The translations under genes were made by a program, and so were the position numbers. Under the pieces are notes generated by a model. It saw only the letters and a program-made list of their open reading frames with translations, did no database searches and was not told the origin of the DNA. Below, piece after piece: positions 4,150 through 21,027 of a DNA stretch of 36,278 bases. The number at the start of each line of letters is the position of its first letter. Position 1 is the stretch's first letter. Origin of the DNA: a virus; IMG/VR virus record IMGVR_UViG_3300006162_000032. One strand, 5' to 3'.

Positions 4150-4422
4150 ATGAAAAAACTGGTTAAGGTTAGTCTCGAAGAAATCACGATGAACTTCCTG
4201 AAAGACCCGAACTCCTGGCCACGTTGGCCTTTTCTGCCCCTGGTCCGGCGTAATGGACAGAAGCCTGATTATGCCGTCCTGGCGGAGTCAAAAGAATTTC
4301 CCTTCACTCTTTTCATAGTCAATGTGTTTGACACGGAGGCCCTGAAAAATCTAAGGGACGCGGAACAGTTGGCCTATCGCAGTTTCGAGGACATCGTGAA
4401 AGATGGTTGGGTTGTTGATTAA
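4150..4422 (+). CDS. hypothetical protein (90 aa)
   Basis: AAGGAGAGGAACACA-ATG; stop abuts family-A element. Confidence 0.5.
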   Translation: MKKLVKVSLEEITMNFLKDPNSWPRWPFLPLVRRNGQKPDYAVLAESKEFPFTLFIVNVFDTEALKNLRDAEQLAYRSFEDIVKDGWVVD

Positions 4423-4452
4423 CGAGGGCCACCTCATCTGAGGTGGTAAGTC
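4422..4452 (+). repeat. family-A intergenic stem-loop element (ACGAGGGCC + hairpin + GGTAAGT)
   Basis: conserved flanks; palindromic stem acctcatctgaggtgg; starts at last base of the stop. Confidence 0.8.
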
Positions 4453-4542
4453 CGAGATTACATCGGGCGGGGATGTATGAGTTATCCTGGTCTTTCCCAT
4501 TCGCCGTCAGGGCCAACGTTGCCTAAGTGGGCCGAGATGGTC

Positions 4543-4572
4543 AAAAGGTGAGTACTAGTTAATCACCTTTTC
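4543..4572 (+). terminator. rho-independent terminator-like hairpin (AAAAGGTGA...TCACCTTTT)
   Basis: 9-bp stem with T-run on the 3' arm. Confidence 0.45.
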
Positions 4573-4682
4573 AACCACCCGGTTCGGAACATCAGCCAAC
4601 TAACCGCGCCCAGGCCAACTGGACCCCGGAACTAACCATCCCTCCCCGCGCGGCGTGATTTCGGATTTCAAGGAGAGGAACA

Positions 4683-5090
4683 ATGAAAAAGAATGAGGTA
4701 GAAGTTGGTAAGACGTACGTCGTCAAAGTCAGTAACAAACTGGTTCCCGTCCGATTGGATTCCGTTTCCTCCTACGGAGGTTGGAATGGAACCAATCTTC
4801 GGACCAACCGCGGCGTTCGGATTCGGTCGGCGATGAAGCTGAGGAAAGAGTACGTTCCCAAACCCAAGACACCCCCGGTTGAGGCCACCGTGCCAAGTTA
4901 CGGCGGCTTTAAAGAGGGTGATCGAGTCGAACTGTCCGCGGATGAATATAATCCACGGCAGGTCGGCAAGATCGTCGAGGCGGAACGTGGGGGAATGTTC
5001 ATCGTAGAACTTGATAAAGAGTTCTGGGATGCGGATGACCATGACGGTATCCGTGAGGTTTACTTCACGGATATGAAAAAGATTGCCTGA
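4683..5090 (+). CDS. hypothetical protein (135 aa)
   Basis: AAGGAGAGGAACA-ATG. Confidence 0.6.
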   Translation: MKKNEVEVGKTYVVKVSNKLVPVRLDSVSSYGGWNGTNLRTNRGVRIRSAMKLRKEYVPKPKTPPVEATVPSYGGFKEGDRVELSADEYNPRQVGKIVEAERGGMFIVELDKEFWDADDHDGIREVYFTDMKKIA

Positions 5091-5121
5091 ACGAGGGCCG
5101 CGGATCACTCCGCGGTAAGTA
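5091..5121 (+). repeat. family-A stem-loop element
   Basis: TGA-ACGAGGGCC-gcggatcactccgcgg-TAAGT. Confidence 0.8.
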
Positions 5122-5183
5122 CAGTTAAGGGAGGAAATCCCAACAAGAGATTACATCTCTTGTTGCTGTACCAGGAGAGGAAT
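5118..5183 (+). promoter_or_regulatory. family-B-like structured leader (variant: TACAG/CTGTA P1, GGGAGGAAATCCC, AACAAGAGA...TCTCTTGTT) ending in CCAGGAGAGGAAT-ATG
   Basis: shares the 3' block GCTGTACCAGGAGAGGAA with copy at 15637-15706. Confidence 0.55.
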
Positions 5184-5447
5184 ATGGCAAGAACTTTGCA
5201 AAAAGAACAACGCACCGTCTATGTCACGACCGTACGAGTAGAGGCCCAGACGTTCGAAAAGACCAACAAAGGAACCTGGGAGTACGTCGGGCCGGGCAGT
5301 ACCGATTATGAACGGGAATACACGGCCGTGGCCAGTGAGAGTCATCACGTCGCCGAAAACATCGCCGACAAACTGGTCGACGCATTTCCTGAACTTCACC
5401 AAAAAGACCAGGACACTACTAACTGGTTCAATAACGATATTGGTTGA
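5184..5447 (+). CDS. hypothetical protein (87 aa)
   Basis: start after conserved leader; ORF-track N-terminal extension LLYQERN is the translated leader. Confidence 0.55.
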   Translation: MARTLQKEQRTVYVTTVRVEAQTFEKTNKGTWEYVGPGSTDYEREYTAVASESHHVAENIADKLVDAFPELHQKDQDTTNWFNNDIG

Positions 5448-5475
5448 CGAGGGCCACCCCACGGGGTGGTAAGTA
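5447..5475 (+). repeat. family-A stem-loop element
   Basis: ACGAGGGCC-accccacggggtgg-TAAGT. Confidence 0.8.
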
Positions 5476-5488
5476 TGGAGAGAAAACA

Positions 5489-5779
5489 ATGAAAAAGAAC
5501 CACGAACAAAGCAAAGAATTCACCAAGTTGTTGCTCGATCTGAAAGAACAGGGTTGGTCTATTTATATGAGACCGATTTTGCGAATCGTCGATGATACCT
5601 GGATACTCCGGCGGCGGTCTGATCCGTTGGAATTCCTGTTCGTCGCCGAAGACTTTCAGGTGTGGGAACGGAAGCGGTTCACCCGTGAACCGTTTGGTGA
5701 CTATACCGTGCCCTACCGCGATTTGGGTGGGGGCAAAGACCTGAAATCACTTTACCAGAACCTTACGAGGGCCGCCTGA
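5489..5779 (+). CDS. hypothetical protein (96 aa); last codons (..TRAA-stop) lie inside a family-A element
   Basis: GGAGAGAAAACA-ATG; stop TGA in hairpin loop. Confidence 0.55.
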   Translation: MKKNHEQSKEFTKLLLDLKEQGWSIYMRPILRIVDDTWILRRRSDPLEFLFVAEDFQVWERKRFTREPFGDYTVPYRDLGGGKDLKSLYQNLTRAA

Positions 5780-5793
5780 GAAGGCGGTAAGTA
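5765..5793 (+). repeat. family-A stem-loop element (stop codon of upstream gene in its loop)
   Basis: ACGAGGGCC-gcc-TGA-gaaggc-GGTAAGT. Confidence 0.75.
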
Positions 5794-5886
5794 CCGGGTC
5801 TCACCCAAGACGACAAGATCATGGTTGAGTAGTCCATGACGAGACTCCGAGCGCGTGCGGCCCGGTACTTCAAAAAGAGAGGAACA

Positions 5887-6090
5887 ATGATATATCACAT
5901 AGGACAGGAAAAAGGTGGGCGAATTAAATTCACAACGGATGTTGATTGCCTGTCTCCGCAGATCGTGAAATATACCAAAAAGAACTTCCAAAATCGGGGA
6001 GAGGTTCTATTGTTGGCCGAGGAACTGTGGAAACAGGGTCATGAAACCTGCGTTGATGATGAGGTTGGTTTGGTGGAGTTGGAACACTAA
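5887..6090 (+). CDS. hypothetical protein (67 aa)
   Basis: AAAAGAGAGGAACA-ATG; upstream 90-nt leader forms 10-bp helix AAGTACCGGG/CCCGGTACTT. Confidence 0.45.
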   Translation: MIYHIGQEKGGRIKFTTDVDCLSPQIVKYTKKNFQNRGEVLLLAEELWKQGHETCVDDEVGLVELEH

Positions 6091-6118
6091 CGAGGGCCGC
6101 CCGGTCGGGCGGTAAGTG
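6090..6118 (+). repeat. family-A stem-loop element
   Basis: TAA-CGAGGGCC-gcccggtcgggc-GGTAAGT. Confidence 0.8.
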
Positions 6119-6237
6119 ACGGGTCGGTTCGATTCCACTCGCCCGCGCCTAGTAAGGGTGTGTGTTTGTTGAGTCCCCTTCGAACGGCCAGTTGCAAGGA
6201 TGACGTCGATCCGTCACTTACCAAGGAGAGGAACAAA

Positions 6238-6549
6238 ATGACTTACAAAAGAAAAAAGTTGATTGTACTTCCGGAACGTCTCTTTCGTCAAAAGATCGAG
6301 GCGCAATTGGCAAAGGTTATCAATGCGGTCGAAGTCGCCCATGGTGAGGCGATGAGTCTCAGTATCATTGCCGAGGACCAGACCACGGCCCTGGACAATG
6401 ATCCCGAGGCACTGTCCCCGAAAAACAAACGGGCTTATAACCTGGCCGAGGATGTTTTGGAATGGGCGCAGGCCGTCGAGGAACTGTTGGATGGGGTGGA
6501 TACCGGGGCAATCCGGGCCAAGCTCAAAAAAGCAACGAGGGCCGCCTGA
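6238..6549 (+). CDS. hypothetical protein (103 aa); C-terminus ..ATRAA encoded by a truncated family-A copy
   Basis: AAGGAGAGGAACAAA-ATG; 12-bp helix GGTAAGTGACGG (6111-6122)/CCGTCACTTACC (6213-6224) abuts the SD. Confidence 0.5.
   Translation: MTYKRKKLIVLPERLFRQKIEAQLAKVINAVEVAHGEAMSLSIIAEDQTTALDNDPEALSPKNKRAYNLAEDVLEWAQAVEELLDGVDTGAIRAKLKKATRAA
6535..6549 (+). repeat. truncated family-A element (ACGAGGGCCGCCTGA) inside coding 3' end
   Basis: identical to the 5' half of the copy at 5765. Confidence 0.6.
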
Positions 6550-6557
6550 TGGCCAAA

Positions 6558-6590
6558 ACGAGGGCCGACTCAAAAATGAGTCGGTAAGTA
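6558..6590 (+). repeat. family-A stem-loop element
   Basis: ACGAGGGCC-gactcaaaaatgagtc-GGTAAGT. Confidence 0.8.
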
Positions 6591-6603
6591 CAAGGAGCGT
6601 AAT

Positions 6604-6846
6604 ATGCCAAAACTTTCGAAGGGTCAGATCGCCAACTTCCGAACATTGTCGAACGCCAATCACAACGACCGACTTTGTTTAATCGACTGCCAGGATAAGT
6701 CCACCGGAAAGTCGGTGGCCGTCGTGGCGGCGTTGAACATAGTCGGGAAAGAAATTGAGATTATTCCGTTGGCAAAGTTGTTCGACGGTAATCCCTATGA
6801 TGAGTTACTGCCGCCCAATCCGGACGGTGGTTATCATCAAGATTGA
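6604..6846 (+). CDS. hypothetical protein (80 aa)
   Basis: AAGGAGCGTAAT-ATG. Confidence 0.55.
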   Translation: MPKLSKGQIANFRTLSNANHNDRLCLIDCQDKSTGKSVAVVAALNIVGKEIEIIPLAKLFDGNPYDELLPPNPDGGYHQD

Positions 6847-6876
6847 ACGAGGGCGGTCACCCCGGTGACCGTAAGT
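6847..6876 (+). repeat. family-A stem-loop element
   Basis: ACGAGGGC-ggtcaccccggtgacc-GTAAGT. Confidence 0.8.
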
Positions 6877-6891
6877 ACAAAGGAGAACAAA

Positions 6892-7167
6892 ATGTTTGAA
6901 ACAAATGTCGACGACTTTCACAAAGAACAAGAGGCCGCAAAACGGGCCACCGGGGTCAATTATCGAGATGCTTTGGAATTGGCGATCGCGGCCCTGCAAA
7001 GAGCCGGGGAGGCAAAGTCAGAATCGGCGGTGTTAAATCATATCGACTCGGCCTTACTGGAAGTCGGGGTCGGTGTGCATCTGATGCACACCATACCCCG
7101 GCAGTTGTCTCCGTTTCGGACAAAGTCGGTCATGCAGTTGCTTGGAAGAATGGGAGTTGAAAAATAA
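6892..7167 (+). CDS. hypothetical protein (91 aa)
   Basis: AAAGGAGAACAAA-ATG. Confidence 0.55.
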   Translation: MFETNVDDFHKEQEAAKRATGVNYRDALELAIAALQRAGEAKSESAVLNHIDSALLEVGVGVHLMHTIPRQLSPFRTKSVMQLLGRMGVEK

Positions 7168-7197
7168 ACGAGGGCCGGGTTGAAAACCCGGTAAGTA
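7168..7197 (+). repeat. family-A stem-loop element
   Basis: ACGAGGGCC-gggttgaaaaccc-GGTAAGT. Confidence 0.8.
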
Positions 7198-7209
7198 CAG
7201 GAGAAAAAC

Positions 7210-7446
7210 ATGGAAAATGAATTTTCTGTTTGCCAATTTTTTCCGGATGGCGCCTATGAATATGTGAGACGATTTGTGGGGCCGGAAGAGGCGGTGAAGG
7301 CGTTCCAACACTATACCCATTCGGTGGGCGCCCGCCTGGGCACCACCGTGCGGGTCATTATCACCGACGGCGGCGATATGACAAACATGGAATGGAAGTT
7401 TGGGAAGGGTATCACCTTCCCCGCGGGGCAACACTTTAAACAGTAG
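7210..7446 (+). CDS. hypothetical protein (78 aa)
   Basis: CAGGAGAAAAAC-ATG. Confidence 0.55.
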   Translation: MENEFSVCQFFPDGAYEYVRRFVGPEEAVKAFQHYTHSVGARLGTTVRVIITDGGDMTNMEWKFGKGITFPAGQHFKQ

Positions 7447-7447
7447 T

Positions 7448-7477
7448 ACGAGGGCGGTCACTTCGGTGGCCGTAAGT
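7448..7477 (+). repeat. family-A stem-loop element
   Basis: ACGAGGGC-ggtcacttcggtggcc-GTAAGT. Confidence 0.8.
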
Positions 7478-7492
7478 GCAAAGGAGATAACG

Positions 7493-7774
7493 ATGACTGA
7501 AAAAGATCACCCCGACGATATCTTAAAAGAATTGGGGTTTGTACAAACATATCCCAGAAAATCCGAGGGTGATACCAGATATTTTCGTGGCGAGGCAAGT
7601 GACCGCACCGCGATGATTATATGGTATTCCCAGGACGAGGGCACCGCCGGAATTCGTTACATCGACAACGGTAAAAGGGCAGGTCGACATATTTGGATCG
7701 GGTCATACTCAATTCTGGCCGATATGTTGGTCAAACTTAAAACAAATGGATTTTTTACGAGGGCCATTCCGTGA
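7493..7774 (+). CDS. hypothetical protein (93 aa); C-terminus FTRAIP-stop encoded inside family-A element
   Basis: AAAGGAGATAACG-ATG. Confidence 0.55.
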   Translation: MTEKDHPDDILKELGFVQTYPRKSEGDTRYFRGEASDRTAMIIWYSQDEGTAGIRYIDNGKRAGRHIWIGSYSILADMLVKLKTNGFFTRAIP

Positions 7775-7786
7775 GGAGTGGTAAGT
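7757..7786 (+). repeat. family-A stem-loop element (stop TGA in GNRA-like loop GTGA)
   Basis: ACGAGGGCC-attcc-GTGA-ggagtg-GTAAGT. Confidence 0.75.
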
Positions 7787-7810
7787 CCAAATATGGACTA
7801 AGGAGAACCA

Positions 7811-8138: not shown

Positions 8139-8141
8139 GCA

Positions 8142-8170
8142 ATGAGGGCCGCCCACCTTGGGCGGTAAGT
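8142..8170 (+). repeat. family-A stem-loop element (variant ATGAGGGCC)
   Basis: ATGAGGGCC-gcccaccttgggc-GGTAAGT. Confidence 0.7.
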
Positions 8171-8197
8171 CCAAATATGGACTAAAAGGAGAACAAT

Positions 8198-8530: not shown

Positions 8531-8531
8531 C

Positions 8532-8562
8532 ACAGAGGGTCGGACGATAAGTCCGGTAATGG
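8532..8562 (+). repeat. family-A stem-loop element (ACAGAGGG variant, 3' flank GGTAATGG fused to family-B leader)
   Basis: ACAGAGGGT-cggacgataagtccg-GTAATGG. Confidence 0.7.
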
Positions 8563-8626
8563 CAATGAGGGAAAACCTCAGAACTGAACGGTACCCGTTC
8601 AGTTTGCCATACCAGGAGAGGAACAT
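8556..8626 (+). promoter_or_regulatory. family-B structured 5' leader (three-way junction: ATGGCAA/TTGCCAT P1, GAGGG-AAAA-CCTC P2, variable P3) ending in ACCAGGAGAGGAACAT-ATG
   Basis: P1 and P3 complementarity; P3 = GAACTGAACGG/CCGTTCAGTT. Confidence 0.6.
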
Positions 8627-8821: not shown

Positions 8822-8822
8822 C

Positions 8823-9069: not shown

Positions 9070-9101
9070 ACGAGGGCATCCCCGGAAACGGGGGTGTAAG
9101 T
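9070..9101 (+). repeat. family-A stem-loop element
   Basis: ACGAGGGC-atccccggaaacgggggtg-TAAGT. Confidence 0.75.
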
Positions 9102-9134: not shown

Positions 9135-10697
9135 ATGAATCACCAAGAAATGTTGAAGTCGTTCTTGGCAGTTGAAGCGATGAAGTCGTACAACGTCGTT
9201 AGTCCAATAATGTTATCCAATCCGATATCCGTGTTAAAACGTATGACGCGCGATAAAGGTTGGAGTAACCAGGCCATTGTTGAAATGGGCCGTCGGAAAA
9301 TGCTGGGAAAGTTTCTGGGAAGTTACGTCTTGCGTAATGTTTCCGGAGATGAAATATACCAAAAATTTCCGGTGTTGGATTATTTGGGTGAAGTTTCGTT
9401 GTTCTCGAAACCCGCCGACTGTGTTACTTACCGGGGAACGCCCGAGCAAAATCAAGTAATTGATCGCGCCTTGGCCGTCTCTCCGGTAAATACTTCCAAT
9501 AATTTTTTTGGGAGTGGTATCGCCGGACGTTTGTCCACGTTTTATAACGTGATCAATTTGGACATTGGGAACACACCCATTGCCATCATCGGTGGTGGGG
9601 CGGCGGGCCAAATTGTACGATATGGCCTGAGTCGCACCGGATTTAAAAATGTAACTCTTTATGAAAAGGGCAAACCATTTGGAATCTGGTCACGGGAAGA
9701 TATCAAAGGCGGGAGTCGAAACAATCCTCGTAGATTGGTCCTGGGCGAGTATGCCCTGGAACCGGCGCCCGGCGAAGGATCGGAGGTACGGGATTTTCTG
9801 CAAAATATCCAGAACGCCAATTCATTAAACGTTATCACCAACGACGTCACCACGGTTACTCCGAACAATCTTGCCCACGGGGTTTATGACCGTGGTCAAA
9901 GTTTTAAGGAGTACCCCATCGTCATCAACTGCCTGGGACTGGGAAAACCGAAAAACCTCTCGGATCGCCACCGTATGGTGACATCTGCGGAGGTCACCCA
10001 CGCCGGTAACCGTTGGCAAAAGCGCCTCACTTACCCGCAAATTAAGGGAAAGAAATTTCTCTTTATTGGCCTGGGAAACTCTACCGCCGAGATGCTCCGG
10101 CAACTTCACGATGCCCAGGATCGAGGAATTGATACCGATTATTCGGTATTGACCCACTATCCCAAGGACTCCGTATTTAATCCGGATGATTACATCATCC
10201 AAAAAAACACGAAGTACCGGGTATTTCGTGATCTTTCTGCCTCGAACCTGGTAGATTACGAGGGCGATCTTCCCCAGAACCGGGCCGATTACTACCGGGC
10301 ACTGCGGACGGGGCGCATCGTGTCAGATGTCACCGGGTGGGACCGGATCATAAAAGACTTTGTGATCCGGCGGGGTCGTTCCCAGACCGAAACCAAAGTG
10401 GATGAGTTTTATAACCTGACCGGTTATGAGAATCGCCCCGACGATCTGGTGAACTTCGGTTGCAGTTTCCGGCACAATGAAATGCAATACGACTACGACG
10501 GAGAAATTCAAAAGTCTCCCGGACTGGCCGACCCGGAACTCCGGTTGCACAAAGGTTACTTTGGGTTTGGCGCCCTTCTGGGAACCTCCCACAACCCCAA
10601 CGCGATCGTGATTCCGGGTATGTTGCACCGCCTGGGCGACCTGTTGTTCGGGGTCATCGTGCGGTCTATGGAGTACAAAGAAAAACAGAACGACTAA
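9135..10697 (+). CDS. FAD/NAD(P)-binding oxidoreductase with two dinucleotide-binding motifs (flavin monooxygenase-like)
   Basis: IAIIGGGAAGQIV (GxGxxG) and FLFIGLGNSTAEML (second Rossmann, PvdA/IucD-like GxGxSxAE); CAGGAGAAGAACAA-ATG. Confidence 0.7.
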   Translation: MNHQEMLKSFLAVEAMKSYNVVSPIMLSNPISVLKRMTRDKGWSNQAIVEMGRRKMLGKFLGSYVLRNVSGDEIYQKFPVLDYLGEVSLFSKPADCVTYRGTPEQNQVIDRALAVSPVNTSNNFFGSGIAGRLSTFYNVINLDIGNTPIAIIGGGAAGQIVRYGLSRTGFKNVTLYEKGKPFGIWSREDIKGGSRNNPRRLVLGEYALEPAPGEGSEVRDFLQNIQNANSLNVITNDVTTVTPNNLAHGVYDRGQSFKEYPIVINCLGLGKPKNLSDRHRMVTSAEVTHAGNRWQKRLTYPQIKGKKFLFIGLGNSTAEMLRQLHDAQDRGIDTDYSVLTHYPKDSVFNPDDYIIQKNTKYRVFRDLSASNLVDYEGDLPQNRADYYRALRTGRIVSDVTGWDRIIKDFVIRRGRSQTETKVDEFYNLTGYENRPDDLVNFGCSFRHNEMQYDYDGEIQKSPGLADPELRLHKGYFGFGALLGTSHNPNAIVIPGMLHRLGDLLFGVIVRSMEYKEKQND

Positions 10698-10727
10698 CGA
10701 GGGTGGGTCACTTCGGTGACCCGTAAG
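10697..10727 (+). repeat. family-A stem-loop element
   Basis: ACGAGGGT-gggtcacttcggtgaccc-GTAAG. Confidence 0.75.
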
Positions 10728-10761
10728 ACCAATCAAATCTTTAAATAGGAGAGGAATTAAC

Positions 10762-11193: not shown

Positions 11194-11223
11194 ACGAGGG
11201 CCACGGAGAAATCCGTGGTAAGT
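11194..11223 (+). repeat. family-A stem-loop element
   Basis: ACGAGGGCC-acggagaaatccgtgg-TAAGT. Confidence 0.8.
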
Positions 11224-11241: not shown

Positions 11242-11478
11242 ATGAACCGACAAAATGTAGAAAAAACCAAGAAAAGATTGGAAGAACTAGGAGTCATCTC
11301 CCTAAATGAACTGCGCACACGCCTGGCTAAAAAGGGTGTGTCGCCGAATATACCGCTCACCACGGCCATGGTGAAACATGTTGAAAGTTACCCCCGGCCG
11401 GAGGAAGTCGTGGCCATGGGACTGGCGATGATTATGTACGGAATGATCAAGATGGAAAGGCGAGGGAACCCCCTCTGA
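11242..11478 (+). CDS. hypothetical protein (78 aa)
   Basis: CAAGGAGAGAATTTCAA-ATG; stop TGA lies in loop of hairpin AACCCCC-TCTGA-GGGGGTT. Confidence 0.5.
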   Translation: MNRQNVEKTKKRLEELGVISLNELRTRLAKKGVSPNIPLTTAMVKHVESYPRPEEVVAMGLAMIMYGMIKMERRGNPL

Positions 11479-11498
11479 GGGGGTTTAAGGAGGGAAAT

Positions 11499-11741: not shown

Positions 11742-11914
11742 GATGGCGGGTCAAGTACGAAACTGTACTGGAGGCAGAAAACCGCACCCAGGCGGTTCTT
11801 TTGGCGGAGTCTTTAATTCCAGAGAAATATTCTAAAGGGATGAAATACACCGTCGAGTTTATTGATCTTGATGAAGAGATGACAGAGGAAGAATATTCAG
11901 AGGGCGCCGGGTGA
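11738..11914 (+). CDS. hypothetical acidic 58-aa protein
   Basis: ATGA overlap with upstream stop; stop TGA in loop of following hairpin; below ORF-track cutoff. Confidence 0.35.
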   Translation: MRWRVKYETVLEAENRTQAVLLAESLIPEKYSKGMKYTVEFIDLDEEMTEEEYSEGAG

Positions 11915-11925
11915 TCCCCGGCGTT
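11898..11925 (+). repeat. family-A-like stem-loop (CAGAGGGCG-ccgggTGAtccccgg-CG)
   Basis: variant lacking GGTAAGT; stop codon in loop. Confidence 0.5.
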
Positions 11926-11947
11926 ACGACCAAATAAAGGAGAAACA

Positions 11948-12214: not shown

Positions 12215-12242
12215 CAGAGGGCCACGGGAAACCGTGGTAACG
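12214..12242 (+). repeat. family-A stem-loop element (ACAGAGGG variant)
   Basis: ACAGAGGGCC-acgggaaaccgtgg-TAACG. Confidence 0.75.
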
Positions 12243-12611: not shown

Positions 12612-12643
12612 ACGAGGGCCGGCCCAGTCATGGGCCGGTAAGT
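12612..12643 (+). repeat. family-A stem-loop element
   Basis: ACGAGGGCC-ggcccagtcatgggcc-GGTAAGT. Confidence 0.8.
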
Positions 12644-12841: not shown

Positions 12842-12953
12842 CGAAGAGGAGCCTCAACATGGTTGGATCGCCACGATGATTGGGGCGGTAATCGTTGGGT
12901 TTTCGATTACCGGGGTCATCTTGATGGTTCAATGGTTTATAACGCGTCACTAA
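12828..12953 (+). CDS. hypothetical 41-aa membrane peptide
   Basis: overlaps 3' end of previous gene; TM segment IGAVIVGFSITGVILMV; stop abuts family-A element. Confidence 0.3.
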   Translation: MKNNDEEEPQHGWIATMIGAVIVGFSITGVILMVQWFITRH

Positions 12954-12983
12954 CGAGGGCCACGGGGGTAACCCGTGGTAAGT
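12953..12983 (+). repeat. family-A stem-loop element
   Basis: ACGAGGGCC-acgggggtaacccgtgg-TAAGT. Confidence 0.8.
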
Positions 12984-13230: not shown

Positions 13231-13262
13231 ACGAGGGCCGTGGGATAACTTCCACGGTAAGT
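13231..13262 (+). repeat. family-A stem-loop element fused to family-B leader
   Basis: ACGAGGGCC-gtgggataacttccacg-GTAAGT. Confidence 0.8.
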
Positions 13263-13328
13263 GTGGCAGAGGGAAACCTCAGAGTGCGACGGCCTCCGCC
13301 GTCGACACTGCCATACCAGGAGAGGAAT
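13262..13328 (+). promoter_or_regulatory. family-B structured 5' leader (P1 TGGCAG/CTGCCA, a covariant of GGCAA/TTGCC)
   Basis: GAGGGAAACCTC P2; P3 GTGCGACGG/CCGTCGACAC; CCATACCAGGAGAGGAAT-ATG. Confidence 0.6.
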
Positions 13329-13749: not shown

Positions 13750-14003
13750 AAAAAGCAAAATCGACACCCAATCCGGAATGGACCGAGGAAAAGGTCAAAA
13801 AAGAATTACCCATGGTCAAACTCCAGGTTGGCCCACGGGTCATTCTTACTGCCGTTACTTCTGGTCGAATGTTAGATTATTGCGTAGTTTCCGTTTACTC
13901 CCATATGAATCTGGACGTGCCCCAGGTACGGGAAATGCGTCTGGAATTTTCCTGGGCGGCGGTTACTCGCAGTCTCAACGAAAATAAACCACTACAAATA
14001 TAA
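13746..14003 (+). CDS. hypothetical protein (85 aa)
   Basis: ATGA overlap. Confidence 0.5.
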   Translation: MKKAKSTPNPEWTEEKVKKELPMVKLQVGPRVILTAVTSGRMLDYCVVSVYSHMNLDVPQVREMRLEFSWAAVTRSLNENKPLQI

Positions 14004-14033
14004 CGAGGGCCGTGGGGAAAACCCACGGTAAGG
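14003..14033 (+). repeat. family-A stem-loop element (GGTAAGG variant)
   Basis: ACGAGGGCC-gtggggaaaacccac-GGTAAGG. Confidence 0.8.
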
Positions 14034-14290: not shown

Positions 14291-14323
14291 CCCGAAGGCG
14301 GGTCACTCCGGTGACCCGTAAGG
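14291..14323 (+). repeat. family-A-like stem-loop (no ACGAGGG; stem gggtcactccggtgaccc + GTAAGG)
   Basis: same stem as copy at 10697. Confidence 0.55.
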
Positions 14324-14734: not shown

Positions 14735-14751
14735 AAACTCAAAACATATCT

Positions 14752-14766
14752 CTGCGATTATCGCAG
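14752..14766. promoter_or_regulatory. palindrome CTGCGATTATCGCAG (copy 1 of 2) between stop codon and family-A element
   Basis: second copy CTGCGATTCTCGCAG at 15592-15606 in identical context AAACATATCT-pal-TGATACGAGGGCC. Confidence 0.5.
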
Positions 14767-14770
14767 TGAT

Positions 14771-14800
14771 ACGAGGGCCGTGGGGAAACCCACGGTAAGG
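14771..14800 (+). repeat. family-A stem-loop element (GGTAAGG variant)
   Basis: ACGAGGGCC-gtggggaaacccac-GGTAAGG. Confidence 0.8.
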
Positions 14801-14853: not shown

Positions 14854-15069
14854 ATGGCACCCGAAAAACCAAAGGCCAAGACGGTAACCGTAGAGCTGCG
14901 CGTGGTTGATCCCAAGAAGGGAGCAGTCAAATACAGCCTTCCCAAGGATCAGTCCGGCGTACTCACCAACATCTACGTCAACCGTCTGGAGGCGATGAAA
15001 GAACTGGGTATCTCTGAACTCGGGGACCTCAAGGGTTTCAAGGTTACCCTGGAACCTATTACTGCGTGA
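14854..15069 (+). CDS. hypothetical protein (71 aa)
   Basis: GGAGAGGAAAAAT-ATG. Confidence 0.5.
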   Translation: MAPEKPKAKTVTVELRVVDPKKGAVKYSLPKDQSGVLTNIYVNRLEAMKELGISELGDLKGFKVTLEPITA

Positions 15070-15098
15070 CGAGGGCCGGCCCATCTGGGCCGGTAAGT
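15069..15098 (+). repeat. family-A stem-loop element
   Basis: TGA-CGAGGGCC-ggcccatctgggcc-GGTAAGT. Confidence 0.8.
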
Positions 15099-15111: not shown

Positions 15112-15234
15112 ATGAACAAACTTAAACAACTCGGAGAGTACGTAGTAGTACTGGCGGTCGTCGTAATCATTATCATCGGCAGTCGCCACCTAATCGGCGA
15201 CAATGTTAATCTGGTTTATAGCGTGGTTCGTTAA
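15112..15234 (+). CDS. hypothetical 40-aa membrane peptide
   Basis: CCGGAGGAAACA-ATG; TM VVVLAVVVIIIIG; below ORF-track cutoff. Confidence 0.35.
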   Translation: MNKLKQLGEYVVVLAVVVIIIIGSRHLIGDNVNLVYSVVR

Positions 15235-15261
15235 CGAGGGCCGTGGGAAACCACGGTAAGT
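15234..15261 (+). repeat. family-A stem-loop element
   Basis: TAA-CGAGGGCC-gtgggaaaccac-GGTAAGT. Confidence 0.8.
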
Positions 15262-15575: not shown

Positions 15576-15591
15576 AAATAAAAACATATCT

Positions 15592-15606
15592 CTGCGATTC
15601 TCGCAG
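15592..15606. promoter_or_regulatory. palindrome CTGCGATTCTCGCAG (copy 2 of 2)
   Basis: see 14752-14766. Confidence 0.5.
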
Positions 15607-15610
15607 TGAT

Positions 15611-15640
15611 ACGAGGGCCGCGGGGAAACCCGCGGTAAGT
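15611..15640 (+). repeat. family-A stem-loop element
   Basis: ACGAGGGCC-gcggggaaacccgcg-GTAAGT. Confidence 0.8.
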
Positions 15641-15706
15641 ACAGCCGGGAAAAAATCCCAAACAAGAAACTTAAACCGTCTCTTGTTGCTGTACCAGGAG
15701 AGGAAC
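15637..15706 (+). promoter_or_regulatory. family-B-like structured leader (variant, paralog of 5118-5183)
   Basis: TACAGC/GCTGTA P1, GGGAAAAAATCCC, AACAAGA...TCTCTTGTT, CCAGGAGAGGAAC-ATG. Confidence 0.55.
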
Positions 15707-15946
15707 ATGAAACTAATCTACGTTATCAACCACCATTCCAATGAAGATTACATGAACAATCTGGCAATCGTCGAAGTAGGACCGGACGACGCCTCTGAAA
15801 GTGGAATGACCATCGGAACAAAAATTGAACGGTACAGAAATTTGTTAAAGGTTAAGTACCCGTTTCATCATTCCATCGTGTTCATGGGTCACTTCCAGGG
15901 AGGTATTCATGTAATGCCATTCCAAGATTTAGAGATATTCATGTAA
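15707..15946 (+). CDS. hypothetical protein (79 aa); C-terminus altered by 32-bp tandem duplication
   Basis: start after conserved leader; ORF-track extension LLYQERN is translated leader. Confidence 0.5.
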   Translation: MKLIYVINHHSNEDYMNNLAIVEVGPDDASESGMTIGTKIERYRNLLKVKYPFHHSIVFMGHFQGGIHVMPFQDLEIFM

Positions 15947-15968
15947 TGCCATTCCAAGATTTAGAGAT
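15905..15968 (+). repeat. perfect 32-bp tandem duplication (ATTCATGTAATGCCATTCCAAGATTTAGAGAT x2)
   Basis: directly visible; without second copy the gene would end ...DLEI-TGA-CGAGGGCC as at other family-A junctions. Confidence 0.9.
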
Positions 15969-15971
15969 ATG

Positions 15972-15998
15972 ACGAGGGCCGTGGGAAACCACGGTAAG
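15972..15998 (+). repeat. family-A stem-loop element
   Basis: ACGAGGGCC-gtgggaaaccac-GGTAAGT. Confidence 0.8.
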
Positions 15999-16068
15999 TA
16001 TGGTTAATGAGGGGAAACCTCAGAACCAAGAGACTTCGTCTCTTGGTTTGCCATACCAGGAGAGGAAC
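15999..16068 (+). promoter_or_regulatory. family-B structured 5' leader
   Basis: ATGG..TTAATGAGGGGAAACCTCAG; P3 AACCAAGAGAC/GTCTCTTGGTT; TTGCCATACCAGGAGAGGAAC-ATG. Confidence 0.6.
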
Positions 16069-17172: not shown

Positions 17173-17201
17173 CAGAGGGACGCGGCGAACCTGCCGCGTT
17201 A
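17172..17201 (+). repeat. family-A-like stem-loop (ACAGAGGGAC-gcggcgaacctgccgcg-TTAATG)
   Basis: variant flanks. Confidence 0.55.
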
Positions 17202-17219
17202 ATGAACAGGAGGGAAAGC

Positions 17220-17411: not shown

Positions 17412-17431
17412 TAAGCCCATTCCTAGTAACT

Positions 17432-17460
17432 CAGAGGGCCGTGGGTAAATCCACGGTAAT
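17432..17460 (+). repeat. family-A stem-loop element (CAGAGGGCC ... GGTAATGG) fused to family-B leader
   Basis: CAGAGGGCC-gtgggtaaatccac-GGTAATGG. Confidence 0.75.
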
Positions 17461-17524
17461 GGCAATGAGGGGAAACCTCAAACATGCGGCTTCGCCGCAA
17501 TGTTTGCCATACCAGGAGAGGAAC
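17455..17524 (+). promoter_or_regulatory. family-B structured 5' leader
   Basis: TAATGGCAATGAGGGGAAACCTCA; P3 AACATGCGGC/GCCGCAATGTT; TTGCCATACCAGGAGAGGAAC-ATG. Confidence 0.6.
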
Positions 17525-17695: not shown

Positions 17696-17709
17696 AAGTA
17701 GTGGTAAAA

Positions 17710-17742
17710 ACGAGGGCCGGGGGATATATTTCCCCGGTAAGT
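17710..17742 (+). repeat. family-A stem-loop element
   Basis: ACGAGGGCC-gggggatatatttcccc-GGTAAGT. Confidence 0.8.
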
Positions 17743-17763
17743 AAATATCAAAGGAGAACGTAA

Positions 17764-19113
17764 GTGGAAGAAAAAGAATTATTAGATCGTGCAAAATCCG
17801 GCGATCAAGACGCGTTCTCCCAAATATATCGTGACCAGTTATCGCGGGTAAAAAAAACTTTGCGCAAATATTGGCAACTGAATGAAGACGCCGTGGAAGA
17901 ACTGGCCCAGGTGACCTTTACGAAGGCCTTTCTGGCCATCGGCGATTTTCGAGGTGAGGCCAAATTAAGTTCCTGGTTGCATCAAATTGCGCACCGGGAA
18001 TTTTTGATGTACCTACGAAGAAAGAACAATCTTTCAGAAGTATCCTTGGATAATCCCATCAATGAAGATGGAAACACCCTGGATTTGCCGGATACTCCGG
18101 ATAAAACCATAGATTCCTGGATCACACGTGAGCATTTTTTGCGCTTGTTACCGTATTTGAATAGGAGCCGGCGCCGCGTGTTGTTTCTTAGATTTCTGGA
18201 AGAAAAAACTTTGGAAGAAACCGCCGGAATTTTAAATTTGTCCGTCGGGGCCGTAAAGGCCTATCAATCACACGGTTTGAGTGATCTTCGAGTGTTGTGG
18301 GAGAGCAAATCAATGAGCAAATCAATGAGCAAGAAAAAACGAAGGTTGCGGCGCGAAAAACTGGTCGCCGCGGCCGCCCGGGAACACATCGGGAGTCCAC
18401 CACCGACGCAAATACGAAGTTCACGGAATGCGGGGGCGTCCAGATTCAATGAAACGGAACTGGGTAGTTATTACCATCTGAGCGGACGCGACCCTCGTGC
18501 CCCGAATCAAATATTTACGTCGCACGGACTTCTGGCAAAAACCCCCGTGAATCTCCGTCCCCCCCGGACGGTCACAGCACCGGGGCCGGTTCGGCAGTAT
18601 ACCCAGGAAGAGATTGTTCATCAAAACTATCTCTTTCAACTAAAACAACAAGGAGAGAAAACAATGGAACAAATACCAAGTGGATCACCACCGACCATCG
18701 AGTCTTTGATATCTGATGCCCATCGCAAGGTACAGTTTTATACCCGGCAGGCCGCGGAATCCGAGGCCGAGGCCCGTAAGTGGACCGCGGTGATTGAACA
18801 ACTGACAAGTGCCCACGATATTATCACGGGAAAGAAGTCGATTAATGCGACGGCCCATGATGAGGTCAATGGAAATGCCCCGCAGACTCGTTCACCACGA
18901 GGATATTGGGAACCGGTCTTAAAACAGATACTCGCCGATGGGCCTCTTCCTAAGAACGAATTAGTTCAGAAGATGATGACCGCGGGTACCACAAATGGTC
19001 AGGCCTATTCGATCATCCGTCGATGCCAAGATAAAGAATTAATCCTGGAATCGGATGGAAAACTGCACTGGATGGCGCCGGTCACCGAAGAACAACCGAG
19101 GGCCGCGGGGTAA
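17764..19113 (+). CDS. ECF-type sigma-70 family factor (regions 2 and 4) with about 260-aa C-terminal extension
   Basis: region 2: AVEELAQVTFTKAFLAIGDF...SSWLHQIAHREFLMYLRRK; region 4: RRVLFLRFLEEKTLEETAGILNLSVGAVKAYQSHGLSDLR; AAAGGAGAACGTAA-GTG start; in-frame internal AAGGAGAGAAAACA-ATG at 18664. Confidence 0.75.
   Translation: MEEKELLDRAKSGDQDAFSQIYRDQLSRVKKTLRKYWQLNEDAVEELAQVTFTKAFLAIGDFRGEAKLSSWLHQIAHREFLMYLRRKNNLSEVSLDNPINEDGNTLDLPDTPDKTIDSWITREHFLRLLPYLNRSRRRVLFLRFLEEKTLEETAGILNLSVGAVKAYQSHGLSDLRVLWESKSMSKSMSKKKRRLRREKLVAAAAREHIGSPPPTQIRSSRNAGASRFNETELGSYYHLSGRDPRAPNQIFTSHGLLAKTPVNLRPPRTVTAPGPVRQYTQEEIVHQNYLFQLKQQGEKTMEQIPSGSPPTIESLISDAHRKVQFYTRQAAESEAEARKWTAVIEQLTSAHDIITGKKSINATAHDEVNGNAPQTRSPRGYWEPVLKQILADGPLPKNELVQKMMTAGTTNGQAYSIIRRCQDKELILESDGKLHWMAPVTEEQPRAAG
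18303..18326 (+). repeat. 12-bp tandem repeat (GAGCAAATCAAT x2) inside sigma-factor extension (SKSMSKSM)
   Basis: directly visible. Confidence 0.8.
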
Positions 19114-19127
19114 TACCCGTGGTAAGG
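19097..19127 (+). repeat. family-A stem-loop element (stop TAA of sigma gene in loop)
   Basis: CGAGGGCC-gcggggTAAtacccgtg-GTAAGG. Confidence 0.7.
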
Positions 19128-19138
19128 AGGGAACAACA

Positions 19139-19357
19139 ATGAATGAAGGTTTGGCAAGTTTGGCGTTAATTTTACTGGGAGTATTGTACCTATGGTATGT
19201 ATTCTCTTTGGCCCGGCGACAGGAAAAGGCCTGGGAGATTATGCAACAGGCGCTTCTATCTCAGAACCGATGTGCGCCGCCGCCCGATATGGAAGTTCCG
19301 CCGGGGGTATTGCGTCCGGACGCACACCACGTACCACCGGCGCGGGGTATTCAGTAA
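19139..19357 (+). CDS. hypothetical membrane protein (72 aa)
   Basis: GGAGGGAACAACA-ATG; TM LASLALILLGVLYLWYVF. Confidence 0.45.
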   Translation: MNEGLASLALILLGVLYLWYVFSLARRQEKAWEIMQQALLSQNRCAPPPDMEVPPGVLRPDAHHVPPARGIQ

Positions 19358-19385
19358 CAGAGGGCCGGCCCACGGGCCGGTAATG
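19357..19385 (+). repeat. family-A stem-loop element (ACAGAGGG variant)
   Basis: ACAGAGGGCC-ggcccacgggcc-GGTAATGG. Confidence 0.75.
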
Positions 19386-19449
19386 GCAATGAGGGGAAAC
19401 CTCAACAAATAAGCCAACGGCTTATTTGTTGCCATATCAGGAGAGGAAA
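19379..19449 (+). promoter_or_regulatory. family-B structured 5' leader
   Basis: TAATGGCAATGAGGGGAAACCTCA; P3 AACAAATAAGCC/GGCTTATTTGTT; TTGCCATATCAGGAGAGGAAA-ATG. Confidence 0.6.
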
Positions 19450-19857
19450 ATGCGTTGTCCAAGTTGCAATAAGTTTGTTCCCTATGAAGACCCCCATGAA
19501 GTTGAGTTAGAAGGTGATTTGGAAGTGGACCTCATCGCGGCCGAGGTCCGGGCCGATGTTCGAGTAATATTGAAATGCGGCGAATGCGGCGAAGAATTGA
19601 AAGATGCAAATATCAGCGCAACTCAGGATATTCCTGGGTATGTACCCGAAGACCACGAGGGCGATGAACACGACCTCTCCGTCAATGGTAATGGTTCAGA
19701 TTTAGAACCGGCCACAAAAAGCGAGGGCAAGGGAAGAGGAACGAAAATGTTCTATGGTTTTTCTCTAGACTACAAAGTTTCGTGCAGTTGCGGAGCAACA
19801 TTCGAGGGAACGTTGTCGGATTTTGAACAAGCTAGTGCAATGAATGAACTCGCGTAA
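19450..19857 (+). CDS. Zn-ribbon-containing hypothetical protein (135 aa)
   Basis: MRCPSCNKF ... CGECGEE ... CSCG; start after family-B leader. Confidence 0.55.
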   Translation: MRCPSCNKFVPYEDPHEVELEGDLEVDLIAAEVRADVRVILKCGECGEELKDANISATQDIPGYVPEDHEGDEHDLSVNGNGSDLEPATKSEGKGRGTKMFYGFSLDYKVSCSCGATFEGTLSDFEQASAMNELA

Positions 19858-19885
19858 CAGAGGGCCGTGGGGTAAACCCACGGTA
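19857..19885 (+). repeat. family-A stem-loop element (ACAGAGGG variant)
   Basis: ACAGAGGGCC-gtggggtaaacccac-GGTAACGG followed by hairpin AACGGAC-TACT-GTCCGTT. Confidence 0.75.
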
Positions 19886-19916
19886 ACGGACTACTGTCCG
19901 TTATGAGGATAAAAAC

Positions 19917-20429
19917 ATGAAACCAAGGAGAGGAAAACAGTATGGGAGCACTAAGGAAAGTCATTCCATTTTCCAAACTGCGGCATTCCGGCTCGGTTAC
20001 CTTTACCGGGATATCAAAGCGCAGCTTAACGCCCTCGGAGCAGAGACAGGCGGAGCGATCACTCCGCCCGACGCTGCCCATTGGGTGGGAACGCTTCTTC
20101 TCGCCGAGACGCGCGGGGAGTTATTGGACGGTACCCAACATTTGCCCCAGATGCGGGGAGCAACCGACCAAGGGAATGAAATCGCCCCTGGCACGACGAC
20201 GATTCATGTTCGTTCACATGATGACAAACCATTGAAACGTCGTCTGTCCAAGTCGGCACGGAACCGGATTGCCCAGGCCCAGCGATTGCGATGGGCGAAA
20301 ACCAAAAGAAAATCAAAAGTTGCCATCGGGGCGAAAAGTTACTGGGACAAAATGTCTCCGGAAGAACGTTCGGCCGAGATGCAACGTCGCGTCAAAGTCC
20401 GGAATGCCAACAAAAAGAAGGCGGCATAA
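19917..20429 (+). CDS. hypothetical basic protein (170 aa; Lys/Arg-rich C-terminus)
   Basis: GAGGAT + 7 nt + ATG; stop abuts next family-A element (TAA-ACCAGAGGGC). Confidence 0.45.
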   Translation: MKPRRGKQYGSTKESHSIFQTAAFRLGYLYRDIKAQLNALGAETGGAITPPDAAHWVGTLLLAETRGELLDGTQHLPQMRGATDQGNEIAPGTTTIHVRSHDDKPLKRRLSKSARNRIAQAQRLRWAKTKRKSKVAIGAKSYWDKMSPEERSAEMQRRVKVRNANKKKAA

Positions 20430-20431
20430 AC

Positions 20432-20460
20432 CAGAGGGCACCGGGGAAACCCGGTGTAAC
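20432..20460 (+). repeat. family-A stem-loop element (CAGAGGGCA variant)
   Basis: CAGAGGGCA-ccggggaaacccggtg-TAACGG followed by hairpin AACGGA-TATCTT-CCGTT. Confidence 0.7.
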
Positions 20461-20489
20461 GGATATCTTCCGTTATCAAGGAGAGGAAT

Positions 20490-20999
20490 TTGGAAAACCA
20501 ACAATACGAAAAGCCATCCCCGGAAACCGTGGCGAAACTCGAGCAGTTAATTGAGTACATCGAGAAAGAACCACTTCGGTTCAACATGGGTTTGTGGGGA
20601 GTAACGGCCAAAGAAGGCGATGTTTTGAAAAAAAGAGTGTCTCAAATATTATCAGAATTTTCGCCGACGGCCGATGATGTTCCCCCCTGTAATACGGTGG
20701 GATGCCTGGCGGGAAATATTCTGGTAATGACGGGACAGGTTAAACCGATTAAAGATGAAGAAACAGACGTATCTTATTTTATCTTTCACACGGATACCCC
20801 CGACCGCGCCGCGGAATGGCTTGGCATAGATAAGAGTGCCGCGGCACGCTTGTTTCTTTTAAGGGGTTATCGCAACTACGGCCGAGGTCACTGGCCAGAA
20901 ACTTTTGAAAGAAGACTTCGGGATGCCACCCCGGGGACTACCGAGTATGTCAATATTACCAAAGAACGTATCCGGCACTTTGAACAAACCGGAGAATAA
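20490..20999 (+). CDS. hypothetical protein (169 aa)
   Basis: AAGGAGAGGAAT-TTG start per ORF track; internal ATG alternatives exist. Confidence 0.5.
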   Translation: MENQQYEKPSPETVAKLEQLIEYIEKEPLRFNMGLWGVTAKEGDVLKKRVSQILSEFSPTADDVPPCNTVGCLAGNILVMTGQVKPIKDEETDVSYFIFHTDTPDRAAEWLGIDKSAAARLFLLRGYRNYGRGHWPETFERRLRDATPGTTEYVNITKERIRHFEQTGE

Positions 21000-21027
21000 C
21001 AGAGGGCCACGGGTAAACCCGTGGTAA
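20999..21027 (+). repeat. family-A stem-loop element (last copy; ACAGAGGG variant)
   Basis: ACAGAGGGCC-acgggtaaacccgtgg-TAATG. Confidence 0.75.

Follow-up and report, generated by a model that had tools for sequence, protein, structure and literature searches.

The operon and its repeated element

We analyzed a 36,278-nucleotide stretch of viral DNA (IMG/VR virus record IMGVR_UViG_3300006162_000032), referred to here as the window, in which a long phage operon carries approximately 36 copies of a stem-loop element between its genes. The window belongs to a phage contig of approximately 99.5 kb that occurs in several samples. The operon is preceded by a 730-nt leader on the plus strand (3420-4149), which is non-coding, contains no open reading frame (ORF) with a Shine-Dalgarno (SD) sequence, and is predicted to fold with a minimum free energy of -246.8 kcal/mol (z = -4.8 against shuffled sequences). 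Downstream of the leader lie approximately 40 small plus-strand genes with a very strong SD, AGGAGAGGAAC. We found no convincing internal promoter or terminator on the plus strand between 4.1 and 21.1 kb. An intrinsic terminator at 21117-21149 (a 10-bp stem with nine G-C pairs, followed by a T-run) closes the operon and a second terminator follows at 22403-22436; both had been anticipated in the original prediction, which was made from the letters of the window alone. The same prediction held that the elements themselves lack a U-tract and are not intrinsic terminators, and we agree: the stem is followed by UAAGUAC, and a terminator scan flags no plus-strand element.

The conserved flanks of the element are strongly over-represented. 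GAGGGCC occurs 31 times against 4.9 expected, with 29 of these on the plus strand at 3.6-24.3 kb, and GGTAAGT occurs 22 times against 2.9 expected. A strict scan (GA[AG]GG and TAA separated by a hairpin of 5 bp or more) returned 35 copies on the plus strand and none on the minus strand, while 704 kb of control loci, which had been chosen because the flanks are present in them, gave 16 matches on both strands. A covariance model of the window's own element, referred to here as R1, gave 36 matches of 24-45 bits, all on the plus strand, and the next-best match fell to 12.6 bits. The copies, of the form AC-GAGGG-hairpin-UAA-GU, are confined to 4.4-21.0 kb on a single strand, and the phage carries none in the 10 kb that precede the array or the 21 kb that follow it. 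Almost all junctions wider than 20 nt contain an element, one each. The predicted set of about 36 oriented intergenic stem-loops is therefore real. Dispersal in both orientations, as in a repetitive extragenic palindrome (REP) or miniature inverted-repeat transposable element (MITE), was not seen: there are 36 copies on the plus strand and 0 on the minus strand, and a single operon is occupied.

Two helices define the element. The central hairpin, P1, is 6-9 bp long; all six aligned pairs covary and are 100% paired, and the stem occurs in 20 distinct sequences, as expected of the selected RNA structure that had been proposed from compensatory stem changes. A minimum of 5 bp was a selection criterion for the copies, so the evidence for P1 lies in the covariation and not in the pairing. 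The outer helix, P2, was not part of the selection criteria; it is a 2-bp helix (AC/GU, CA/UG, or CC/GG) that is 90% paired. GAGGG is present in 35 of the 36 copies (one has GAAGG) and so is UAA (one has UUAC). The inner length from GAGGG to UAA ranges from 16 to 21 nt, and the P1 loops are 2-6 nt long and varied in sequence. The two sub-variants distinguished earlier do exist and are roughly segregated along the array.

The position of the element relative to the genes is more variable than originally proposed. A location at or overlapping the upstream stop codon describes a good part of the array, since the stop starts 4-5 nt before GAGGG in 18 copies, but it starts 6-14 nt before in 7, lies within the P1 loop in approximately 6, and is farther away in approximately 5. 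Likewise, an SD 5-15 nt after the element applies to only approximately 15 copies. In these S-type copies (n = 15) the element passes directly into the SD (UAAGUACAAAGGAG), while the other 21 carry additional structure between UAA and SD: a small hairpin in the 11 H-type copies, a three-way junction ending in GCCAUACCAGGAGAGG in the 7 B-type copies, and a 100-230-nt structured insert in the 3 L-type copies. A second helix, present in 21 copies, begins 0-2 nt past the U of UAA and stops just before the SD.

The insert after the first element (4452-4682) is 233 nt long, non-coding, closed by a 14-bp helix that runs from the UAA to just before the SD, and without an Rfam match. The structured insert of approximately 120 nt after the element at 6092 (6118-6215) holds a tRNA T-arm-like sequence, GGTTCGATTCC (6126-6136). 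The inserts after the elements at 5767 and 6092 gave no Rfam match even at E ≤ 10, and tRNA-like punctuation was ruled out, as ARAGORN finds no tRNA.

The element is derived from the Type-P5 twister ribozyme

Several copies align, below Rfam thresholds, to positions 1-34 of the Type-P5 twister ribozyme (cGCAGAGgG-P1-UAAUGC; RF02684, clan CL00120, gathering score 37.6 bits). The loops and contacts named here (L1, T1, T2, and L4) are as defined for twister (PMC5408937). The sub-threshold matches span GCAGAGGG-P1-UAAUG at 20998, 17173, 14770, and 17430, and the alignments identify the conserved 'flanks' as L1 (GAGGG opposite U^AA) and P2. The elements thus contain L1 with GAGGG opposite N^AA and the catalytic G and A. 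In the leader, a full-length match at 3987-4117 includes a P4/L4 hairpin, CCAG-UCCCAAGC-CUGG. The best scores in the window, 30.0 and 29.7 bits, fall below the gathering score, whereas relatives described below reach 40-66 bits; the 30-bit score of the complete twister is lowered by insertions.

A second covariance model, R2, was built from 60 twisters of other phages only. It detects 37 elements in the window, each on the plus strand: the complete twister and all 36 copies of the array. It finds P1 independently of the window's own sequences. Some R2 alignments are limited to model positions 5-32; others extend over the full model but show the 10-nt L4 loop as missing or exchanged. R2 separately detects two L4 hairpins in the leader. 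In 454 kb of unrelated viral loci R2 gave 2 matches. Other self-cleaving classes (hammerhead, twister-sister, pistol, hatchet, hepatitis delta virus, and glmS) have no Rfam match at E ≤ 1 overlapping the elements; the only other ribozyme match is a chance-level glmS hit at 33401, inside coding sequence. Readings of the conserved bases as a kink-turn or a UAA/GAN loop were dropped once the twister homology was established.

Our data indicate that the element is, very probably, a twister-derived RNA comprising the 5' two-thirds of Type-P5, that is, a 2-bp P2, L1, and the P1 hairpin. It shares with Type-P5 the order and sequence of P2, GAGGG, P1, U^AA, P2' and the L2 dinucleotide, the same strand logic, and the same genomic niche in related phages, with one full copy in the leader here. 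It differs in that the 36 array copies are without L4, and hence without T1 and T2, in that P2 is 2 bp, and in that the best Rfam score is 30 bits rather than 37.6. The array copies are homologous fragments, not members of the family as autonomous ribozymes. The original prediction overlooked that its 'flanks' are the twister catalytic loop, that a complete twister (3987-4117) and an orphan L4 hairpin (3517-3532) lie just upstream, and that the L4 pseudoknot loop is absent from all array copies.

Complete twisters occupy the same junctions in related phages

A 520-aa protein encoded in the array has a 44% homologue in a syntenic phage (locus L159, 4.9 kb of the relative's DNA), where the 520-aa homologue is accompanied by a small-gene array, a 507-aa SNF2 helicase, DUF7307, and Pam3_Gp34. 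All six intergenic gaps of this locus contain a complete Type-P5 twister above the gathering score, in the layout UAG-CA-GAGGG-P1-UAA-UGC-AC-A..-P4(G-UCCCAAGU-C)-AAAGGAG-AUG. A pattern derived from this locus (TAATGCAC..GTCCCAAGTC) matched 77 IMG/VR contig stretches, with at most 12 matches per 12 kb, and 13 IMG/VR loci (125 kb) contained 88 gathering-level Type-P5 twisters and no other Rfam match.

Overall, our census comprises 136 distinct full twisters in 62 loci (L159-L236, IMG/VR and JGI contigs), on one strand per locus. The upstream ORF stops 5-15 nt before GAGGG in 119 of the 136, and an SD and start codon lie within 80 nt in 132 of the 136, with a median distance of 24 nt downstream of P4. 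Both tertiary contacts covary: for T1, GAGGG pairs with CCCA 126 times and GAAGG with CCUA in 8 of 8, and for T2, AC pairs with GU in 114 and GC with GC in 8. In an alignment of 60 of these twisters P2, T1, P1, T2, and P4 are 99-100% paired; the search pattern favors the AC/GU type and the regular expression demanded P1 and P4 pairing. L4 is present within 130 nt in 133 of 133 modules, and 7 apparent exceptions were variant L4s or false positives.

For the relatives, a cleavage role is a straightforward prediction. Self-cleavage at U^A just 3' of P1 would cut the operon transcript between every pair of cistrons, leaving the upstream mRNA with a GC-rich hairpin and a 2',3'-cyclic phosphate at its 3' end and the downstream mRNA with a 5'-OH a few nucleotides before its SD.

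The array copies have lost L4 and kept L1

The P4/L4 hairpin (G-U-CCCA-A-G(C/U)-C) is absent from 36 of 36 array copies. Within 130 nt, an L4 accompanies only the complete twister in the window and is missing from the other 35 elements, and no cis partner for T1 or T2 lies within 130 nt of the elements. Motifs containing CCC are not enriched in the 100 nt flanking the elements on each side, and a search of the same 100 nt for a cis partner returned the SD as the sole enriched motif. A scan for relatives that combine a P3 of the B-type with an L4 (TGCCATACC..GTCCCAAG) gave chance matches only. Since L4, which must dock on GAGGG (T1) and on the dinucleotide after P2 (T2), is absent, the array copies cannot be autonomous, and we hold with high confidence that they are not autonomous twisters.

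The approximately 53 kb of this phage that we examined, composed of the window and its flanking sequence in L010 and L016, contain only two L4 hairpins, and both are in the leader. One is the GC-type L4 (4102-4117) of the sole complete twister (3987-4117; Rfam 30 bits over model positions 1-58; R2 at 3987-4061 and 4102-4117), which has a GCA/UGC P2, GAGGG, a long P1, U^AA at 4035-4037, L2 GC, and a three-way-junction P3 insert. The other is an orphan GU-type hairpin, CAGG-UCCCAAGU-CCUG (3517-3532), without an L1/P1 partner, whose L1/P1 is replaced by a 10-nt loop; Rfam matches it partially (3494-3532, 22.9 bits), R2 matches it at 3514-3533 over model positions 39-58 only, and a regular expression also finds it. 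Among the array copies, the L2 dinucleotide AC, the partner of a GU-type L4 such as the orphan, is retained in approximately 15-17, and GC, the partner of a GC-type L4 such as that of the complete twister, in 4.

The leader also holds a 13-nt direct repeat, GGGACTCTCCTCC, at 3941-3953 and 4009-4021, with the second copy in the P1 loop of the complete twister. The repeat is complementary to the conserved GGAGAGG SD of the operon and may, judging by this match, serve as an anti-SD or in regulatory pairing.

L4 was destroyed in at least four ways, including deletion, exchange for 4-5-nt loops, and replacement by an unrelated 10-nt loop. At 17175, UAAUGAACA leads directly into the SD; at 21002, P4 is retained with a UAAU loop; the B-type copies have a GAGG/CCUC P4 with a GGAAA loop; and at 14294 and 14773 a CCGG P4 carries an unrelated loop, GGGCACGAA.. 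Spacers and SD-proximal bases differ among the copies, and therefore time for change has passed. Furthermore, L1 can decay when it is not needed, as a degenerate copy in the leader (3602-3636), in which L1 has decayed, demonstrates. Random inactivation or neutral decay should have hit L1 too.

A possible completion of the array copies in trans

Given that decay is limited to the L4 side while GAGGG and UAA are invariant, we reasoned that L1 is still used and that the L4 function comes from elsewhere. We therefore favor the view that the elements are still cleavage or processing sites that are completed in trans by an RNA or a protein, and we put the probability of this at approximately 0.5. 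Of the roles proposed earlier, RNA processing or stability is the one that the evidence favors, and hairpin promoters and recombination modules are not. The missing half could be supplied by the two L4 hairpins of the leader or, alternatively, by a protein. The element types match the L4 types, with one L4 of each type in the leader, and this makes the leader our favored source, although completion specifically by its L4 RNA is a tentative proposal that we consider somewhat improbable as it stands. It would amount to a naturally split, trans-acting twister, a possibility we rate no higher, in which one or two leader L4 'enzyme' hairpins complete approximately 36 L4-less 'substrate' modules. 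The enzymes would be the orphan at 3517-3532 and the hairpin freed when the twister at 3987-4117 cuts itself, and the quantity of leader RNA would then control how a 17-kb early operon is punctuated into single-gene mRNAs. The cleavage of the array copies, its position, and the action of L4 in trans are what we infer from sequence comparison.

Several observations weigh against trans completion. The contact would consist of only 3 + 2 Watson-Crick pairs (T1 and T2), T2 of the orphan L4 hairpin could be taken up by an AC that this hairpin carries in cis, and a T2-competent dinucleotide is absent in approximately 15 of the 36 copies. P2 is only 2 bp, reaching 3 bp solely in the element at 21002, whereas functional twisters have 3-4 bp. 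In approximately 12 copies, folding predicts that the AA(G) of UAAG pairs with a downstream CUU, a pairing that competes with an open L1 loop. No CCUA loop matching the single GAAGG copy (14294) occurs in the sequence read, which covers approximately 53 kb of a 99.5-kb phage genome. The diversity of P1 (20 stem types) partly reflects a few sub-families (CCGUGGG, CCACGG, CCGGCCC, CGGUCAC, and others) rather than 35 independent events. Finally, all strain copies retrieved are identical, and therefore there is no orthologous variation for testing selection; a supposed 95% variant (P0122/L157) proved to be identical DNA with a chimeric end.

In the main rival explanation, the elements are retired ribozymes that persist as simple hairpins and act as 3'- or 5'-end stabilizers or as translational insulators, with host RNases cutting the AU-rich UAAGUACAAA; we regard this as a real possibility, if an unlikely one. 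It would account for the loss of L4 from all array copies and for the flush second helix that ends just before the SD in 21 copies and includes the AA of UAA in approximately 12. Furthermore, P1 is intact in 36 of 36 copies although it is dispensable for twister catalysis (PMC11662667), which suggests that the hairpin itself is selected. What a plain hairpin leaves unexplained is that the five GAGGG bases, UAA, and P2, which include the catalytic and T1 positions, are invariant or covarying in 35 of 36 copies, and that all lesions are restricted to the L4 side. The same asymmetric conservation would also fit a phage or host protein that recognized L1 and P1 and either cut the RNA or stabilized its active fold in place of L4, and the weak 5-bp RNA contact in trans would then be avoided. 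We consider such protein-completed sites doubtful: no RNase-like or RNA-binding family was found among the 42 small proteins of the array or among their neighbors, a protein gives no reason for retaining exactly T1 and the catalytic bases, and the two leader L4 hairpins of matching type would be left without explanation.

The remaining alternatives are less probable. If the copies were neutral relics of a recent inactivation, with the L1 side not yet decayed and the flanks kept alike by concerted evolution or recombination, then the P1 sub-families, which indicate duplication or recombination, and the degenerate copies at 3602-3636 and 6534-6554 would fit. We consider this quite improbable, however, given 20 distinct stems with fully maintained pairing, diverged spacers, at least four routes of L4 loss against no L1 lesion in 35 canonical copies, and a leader copy at 3602 in which an unneeded L1 did decay. 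It is very improbable that the short element self-cleaves without L4 as an autonomous minimal ribozyme, even though it retains the L1 loop with the catalytic A and G, as T1 and T2 define the twister active site (PMC5408937) and covary perfectly in 136 relatives, no cis partner exists, and no other Rfam ribozyme appears at E ≤ 1. Least probable of all is an element acting at the DNA level, whether as a hairpin promoter for a phage RNA polymerase or sigma factor, an attC- or PeSL-like site, or a REP or MITE. A single orientation, the position at gene boundaries, conserved flanks around a variable palindrome, and a sigma-factor gene in the array would be in keeping with it. Against this, the GAGGG-UAA spacing varies from 16 to 21 nt, the homologous elements of relatives are bona fide ribozymes that pass the curated twister threshold, no integrase lies nearby, the elements are much shorter than attC, and they are confined to one strand and to the operon; the recombination module that had been suggested is a DNA-level explanation that is not needed.

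Three specific candidates were rejected. A hairpin of the type used by the N4 virion RNA polymerase, or a two-box sigma promoter, has a fixed geometry that inner lengths of 16-21 nt and loops of 2-6 nt do not show. An integron attC is a 57-141-nt imperfect palindrome with R''/R' boxes and IntI, while the elements are approximately 30 nt with perfect stems and no integrase is found among the window proteins. A T7-like RNase III site requires approximately 20 bp of double-stranded RNA, and here there are only the 6-9 bp of P1 and the 2 bp of P2.

Individual copies of the element

All copies described here lie on the plus strand, and scores are R1 bits unless stated otherwise. The L-type copies are at 4422-4451 (41.3; followed by the 233-nt insert, as supported by folding), 5765-5792 (37.2; upstream stop codon in the P1 loop), and 6090-6117 (39.8; insert of approximately 120 nt). 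The B-type copies lie at 5091-5120 (41.4; three-way junction 5119-5171), 13231-13262 (38.6; junction 13261-13316), 15611-15640 (45.2; junction 15639-15694), and 15972-15999 (37.8; junction 15998-16056), together with three of the CA/UG or CA variant at 8533-8561 (35.3; junction 8560-8612), 17432-17461 (41.9; junction 17460-17512; R2 aligns the hairpin GAGG-GGAAA-CCUC to P4), and 19358-19385 (38.3; junction 19384-19437). H-type copies were found at 7757-7786 (38.7), 8142-8170 (35.2), 9070-9101 (35.3), 14003-14033 (40.6), and 15234-15261 (39.4), and those of the CA variant at 12215-12242 (36.8; UAACGCAC), 19858-19888 (37.5), and 20432-20461 (33.5).

The S-type copies, in which the SD follows directly, are spread across the array: 5447-5474 (34.7), 6558-6589 (41.2), 6847-6876 (38.9), 7168-7196 (41.5), 7448-7477 (35.4; L2 GC), 10697-10728 (28.9; UAAGA), 11194-11223 (45.0), 11460-11490 (26.1; stop codon in the P1 loop), 12612-12643 (42.6), 12953-12983 (44.1), 15069-15098 (38.5), 17710-17742 (41.1), and 19096-19127 (36.9), whose P1 loop contains the stop of the sigma-factor gene. 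The S-type copy of the CA variant at 17173-17204 (37.8; R2 25.3 bits with 18 P4/L4 model positions deleted) reads UAAUGAACA and then the SD, and is the ancestral form minus the P4/L4 hairpin.

Other copies are more diverged or retain more of the twister. The GAAGG copy (14292-14323; 25.8) retains a CCGG P4 with the unrelated loop GGGCACGAAAA, and its neighbor at 14771-14800 (40.4; R2 alignment) reads UAAGGCACAAG and then a CCGG P4 with an unrelated 10-nt loop, GGGCACGAAU. A copy with CAGAGGG-hairpin-UUAC at 11898-11929 (24.3) was outside the training set. The last element (21000-21050; Rfam 29.7 bits, R2 30.2 bits) is the nearest to the ancestral form, with an ACA/UGU P2, L2 AC, and a retained P4 stem in which L4 is replaced by a UAAU tetraloop. 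Two incomplete copies were found by inspection of the sequence: the degenerate L1/P1 copy in the leader (ACACAGAGGGCC...GAGAAU; 3602-3636), which is without a proper UAA or P2 and was missed by R1 and R2, and a truncated duplicate (AACGAGGGCCGCC...; 6534-6554) 23 nt ahead of the next element. In addition, a 28-nt repeat, CTCTGCGATT[AC]TCGCAGTGATACGAGGG, stands ahead of two elements at 14750-14777 and 15590-15617, a sign of segmental duplication or recombination inside the array.

Homology searches and neighboring genes

Exact-pattern scans of viral, metagenome, and genome collections for the window consensus (ACGAGGGCC..GGTAAGTAC) gave single chance matches only, without hairpins, and a scan for GCCATACCAGGAGAGGAA gave no matches. 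Megablast against cultured phages returned no match for the array, for the relatives' array, or for the twister consensus. Most array proteins are without relatives; the sigma factor has no homologue beyond itself, and in IMG/VR neither the 367-aa nor the 520-aa protein has a close relative. The nearest homologues (approximately 44%) of the 520-aa protein (9135-10697), which is NAD/FAD-binding-like, are mostly from Patescibacteria (candidate phyla radiation), plus two phages, a possible hint, from these sequence matches, to the host or to the origin of the gene.

Just downstream of the array lie an Rnl1-like RNA ligase (24308-25456), an Acb2/Tad1-like protein acting against the cyclic-oligonucleotide-based antiphage signaling system (25457-25843), and a metallophosphoesterase (26607-27212). 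The ligase and phosphoesterase could heal the 5'-OH and cyclic-phosphate ends left by twisters, or they could simply be anti-defense genes. Loci with homologues of the RNA ligase (L023-L026) are not syntenic and contain no elements; one of them, an unrelated phage contig (L024, ENA ERZ25039496 contig_20476), has its own repeat, GTACGGAAAACGGA, approximately 10 times in 21 kb. An 851-aa protein (27422-29976) contains a major-vault-protein shoulder domain and has homologues of 41-56% identity, without synteny, in 20 large phage contigs from IMG/VR that differ widely in GC content; these loci (L027-L046) likewise contain no elements. Tandem repeats occur at 2334-2407 (a perfect 14-nt unit, 5.3 copies; GGGCAACCGCGCCG), at 15900-15970 (32 nt, 2.2 copies), and at 22445-22487 (TATCAG, 7 copies), the last directly after the terminator at 22403-22436.

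Comparison with known systems and significance

The closest counterparts of the array are the complete-twister arrays of other phages (for example, IMGVR_UViG_3300014204_000010 and JGI 3300050170 Ga0526303_000320), which have the same order of stop codon, ribozyme, SD, and start codon, one strand per locus, and at most one ribozyme per gene in small-gene operons. They keep P4/L4 in cis in 133 of 133 modules, whereas this phage does so in 1 of 37. Intercistronic hairpins are also known from the RNase III sites of phage T7 and those of Bacillus phage SP82 with its 5' stabilizer, where cutting between early cistrons yields stable monocistronic mRNAs. Those sites need approximately 20 bp of double-stranded RNA and a protein enzyme, while the elements of this phage have a P1 of 6-9 bp and, as their conserved loop, the core of a ribozyme. 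Minimal hammerheads, in newt and in Penelope-like elements, are active only as dimers or in trans (cited in PMC6765202). They provide a precedent for repeated, incomplete motifs that need a second RNA copy, but they belong to another ribozyme class, and they are completed by a further copy of themselves instead of by a distinct L4 hairpin. Engineered insulators between cistrons, either RiboJ-type ribozymes or Csy4, cleave just upstream of the ribosome-binding site and thereby uncouple expression from the upstream context. Ribozyme-dependent translation has also been described in RNA viruses (bioRxiv 10.1101/2024.05.16.594327). The likeness to both is a cut near a ribosome-binding site or ORF; the insulators are synthetic, the RNA-virus case is eukaryotic, and neither involves truncated motifs.

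Twisters are known to associate with phage genes and with other ribozymes, the processing of polycistronic transcripts has only been suggested, and their function has been called elusive (PMC4604425; PMC6765202). Our search of the literature in the searchable library, which excluded Roth 2014 and Weinberg 2015, turned up no account of twister arrays placed from stop to SD in phage operons, nor any of L4-less twister modules. The presence of twisters, in a set of uncultivated phages, at nearly every junction of long small-gene operons makes 'mRNA punctuation' a hypothesis that is directly testable at dozens of natural sites. The result also matters for annotation, since these elements score beneath the Rfam threshold and, without it, would be taken for novel repeats. 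Furthermore, this phage is a natural experiment in which all copies but one have lost the same essential loop while the catalytic loop is intact. If the array copies are still cut, they would be the first natural trans-completed twister, with one enzyme and many substrates; if they are not, they would show which part of the element matters apart from catalysis.

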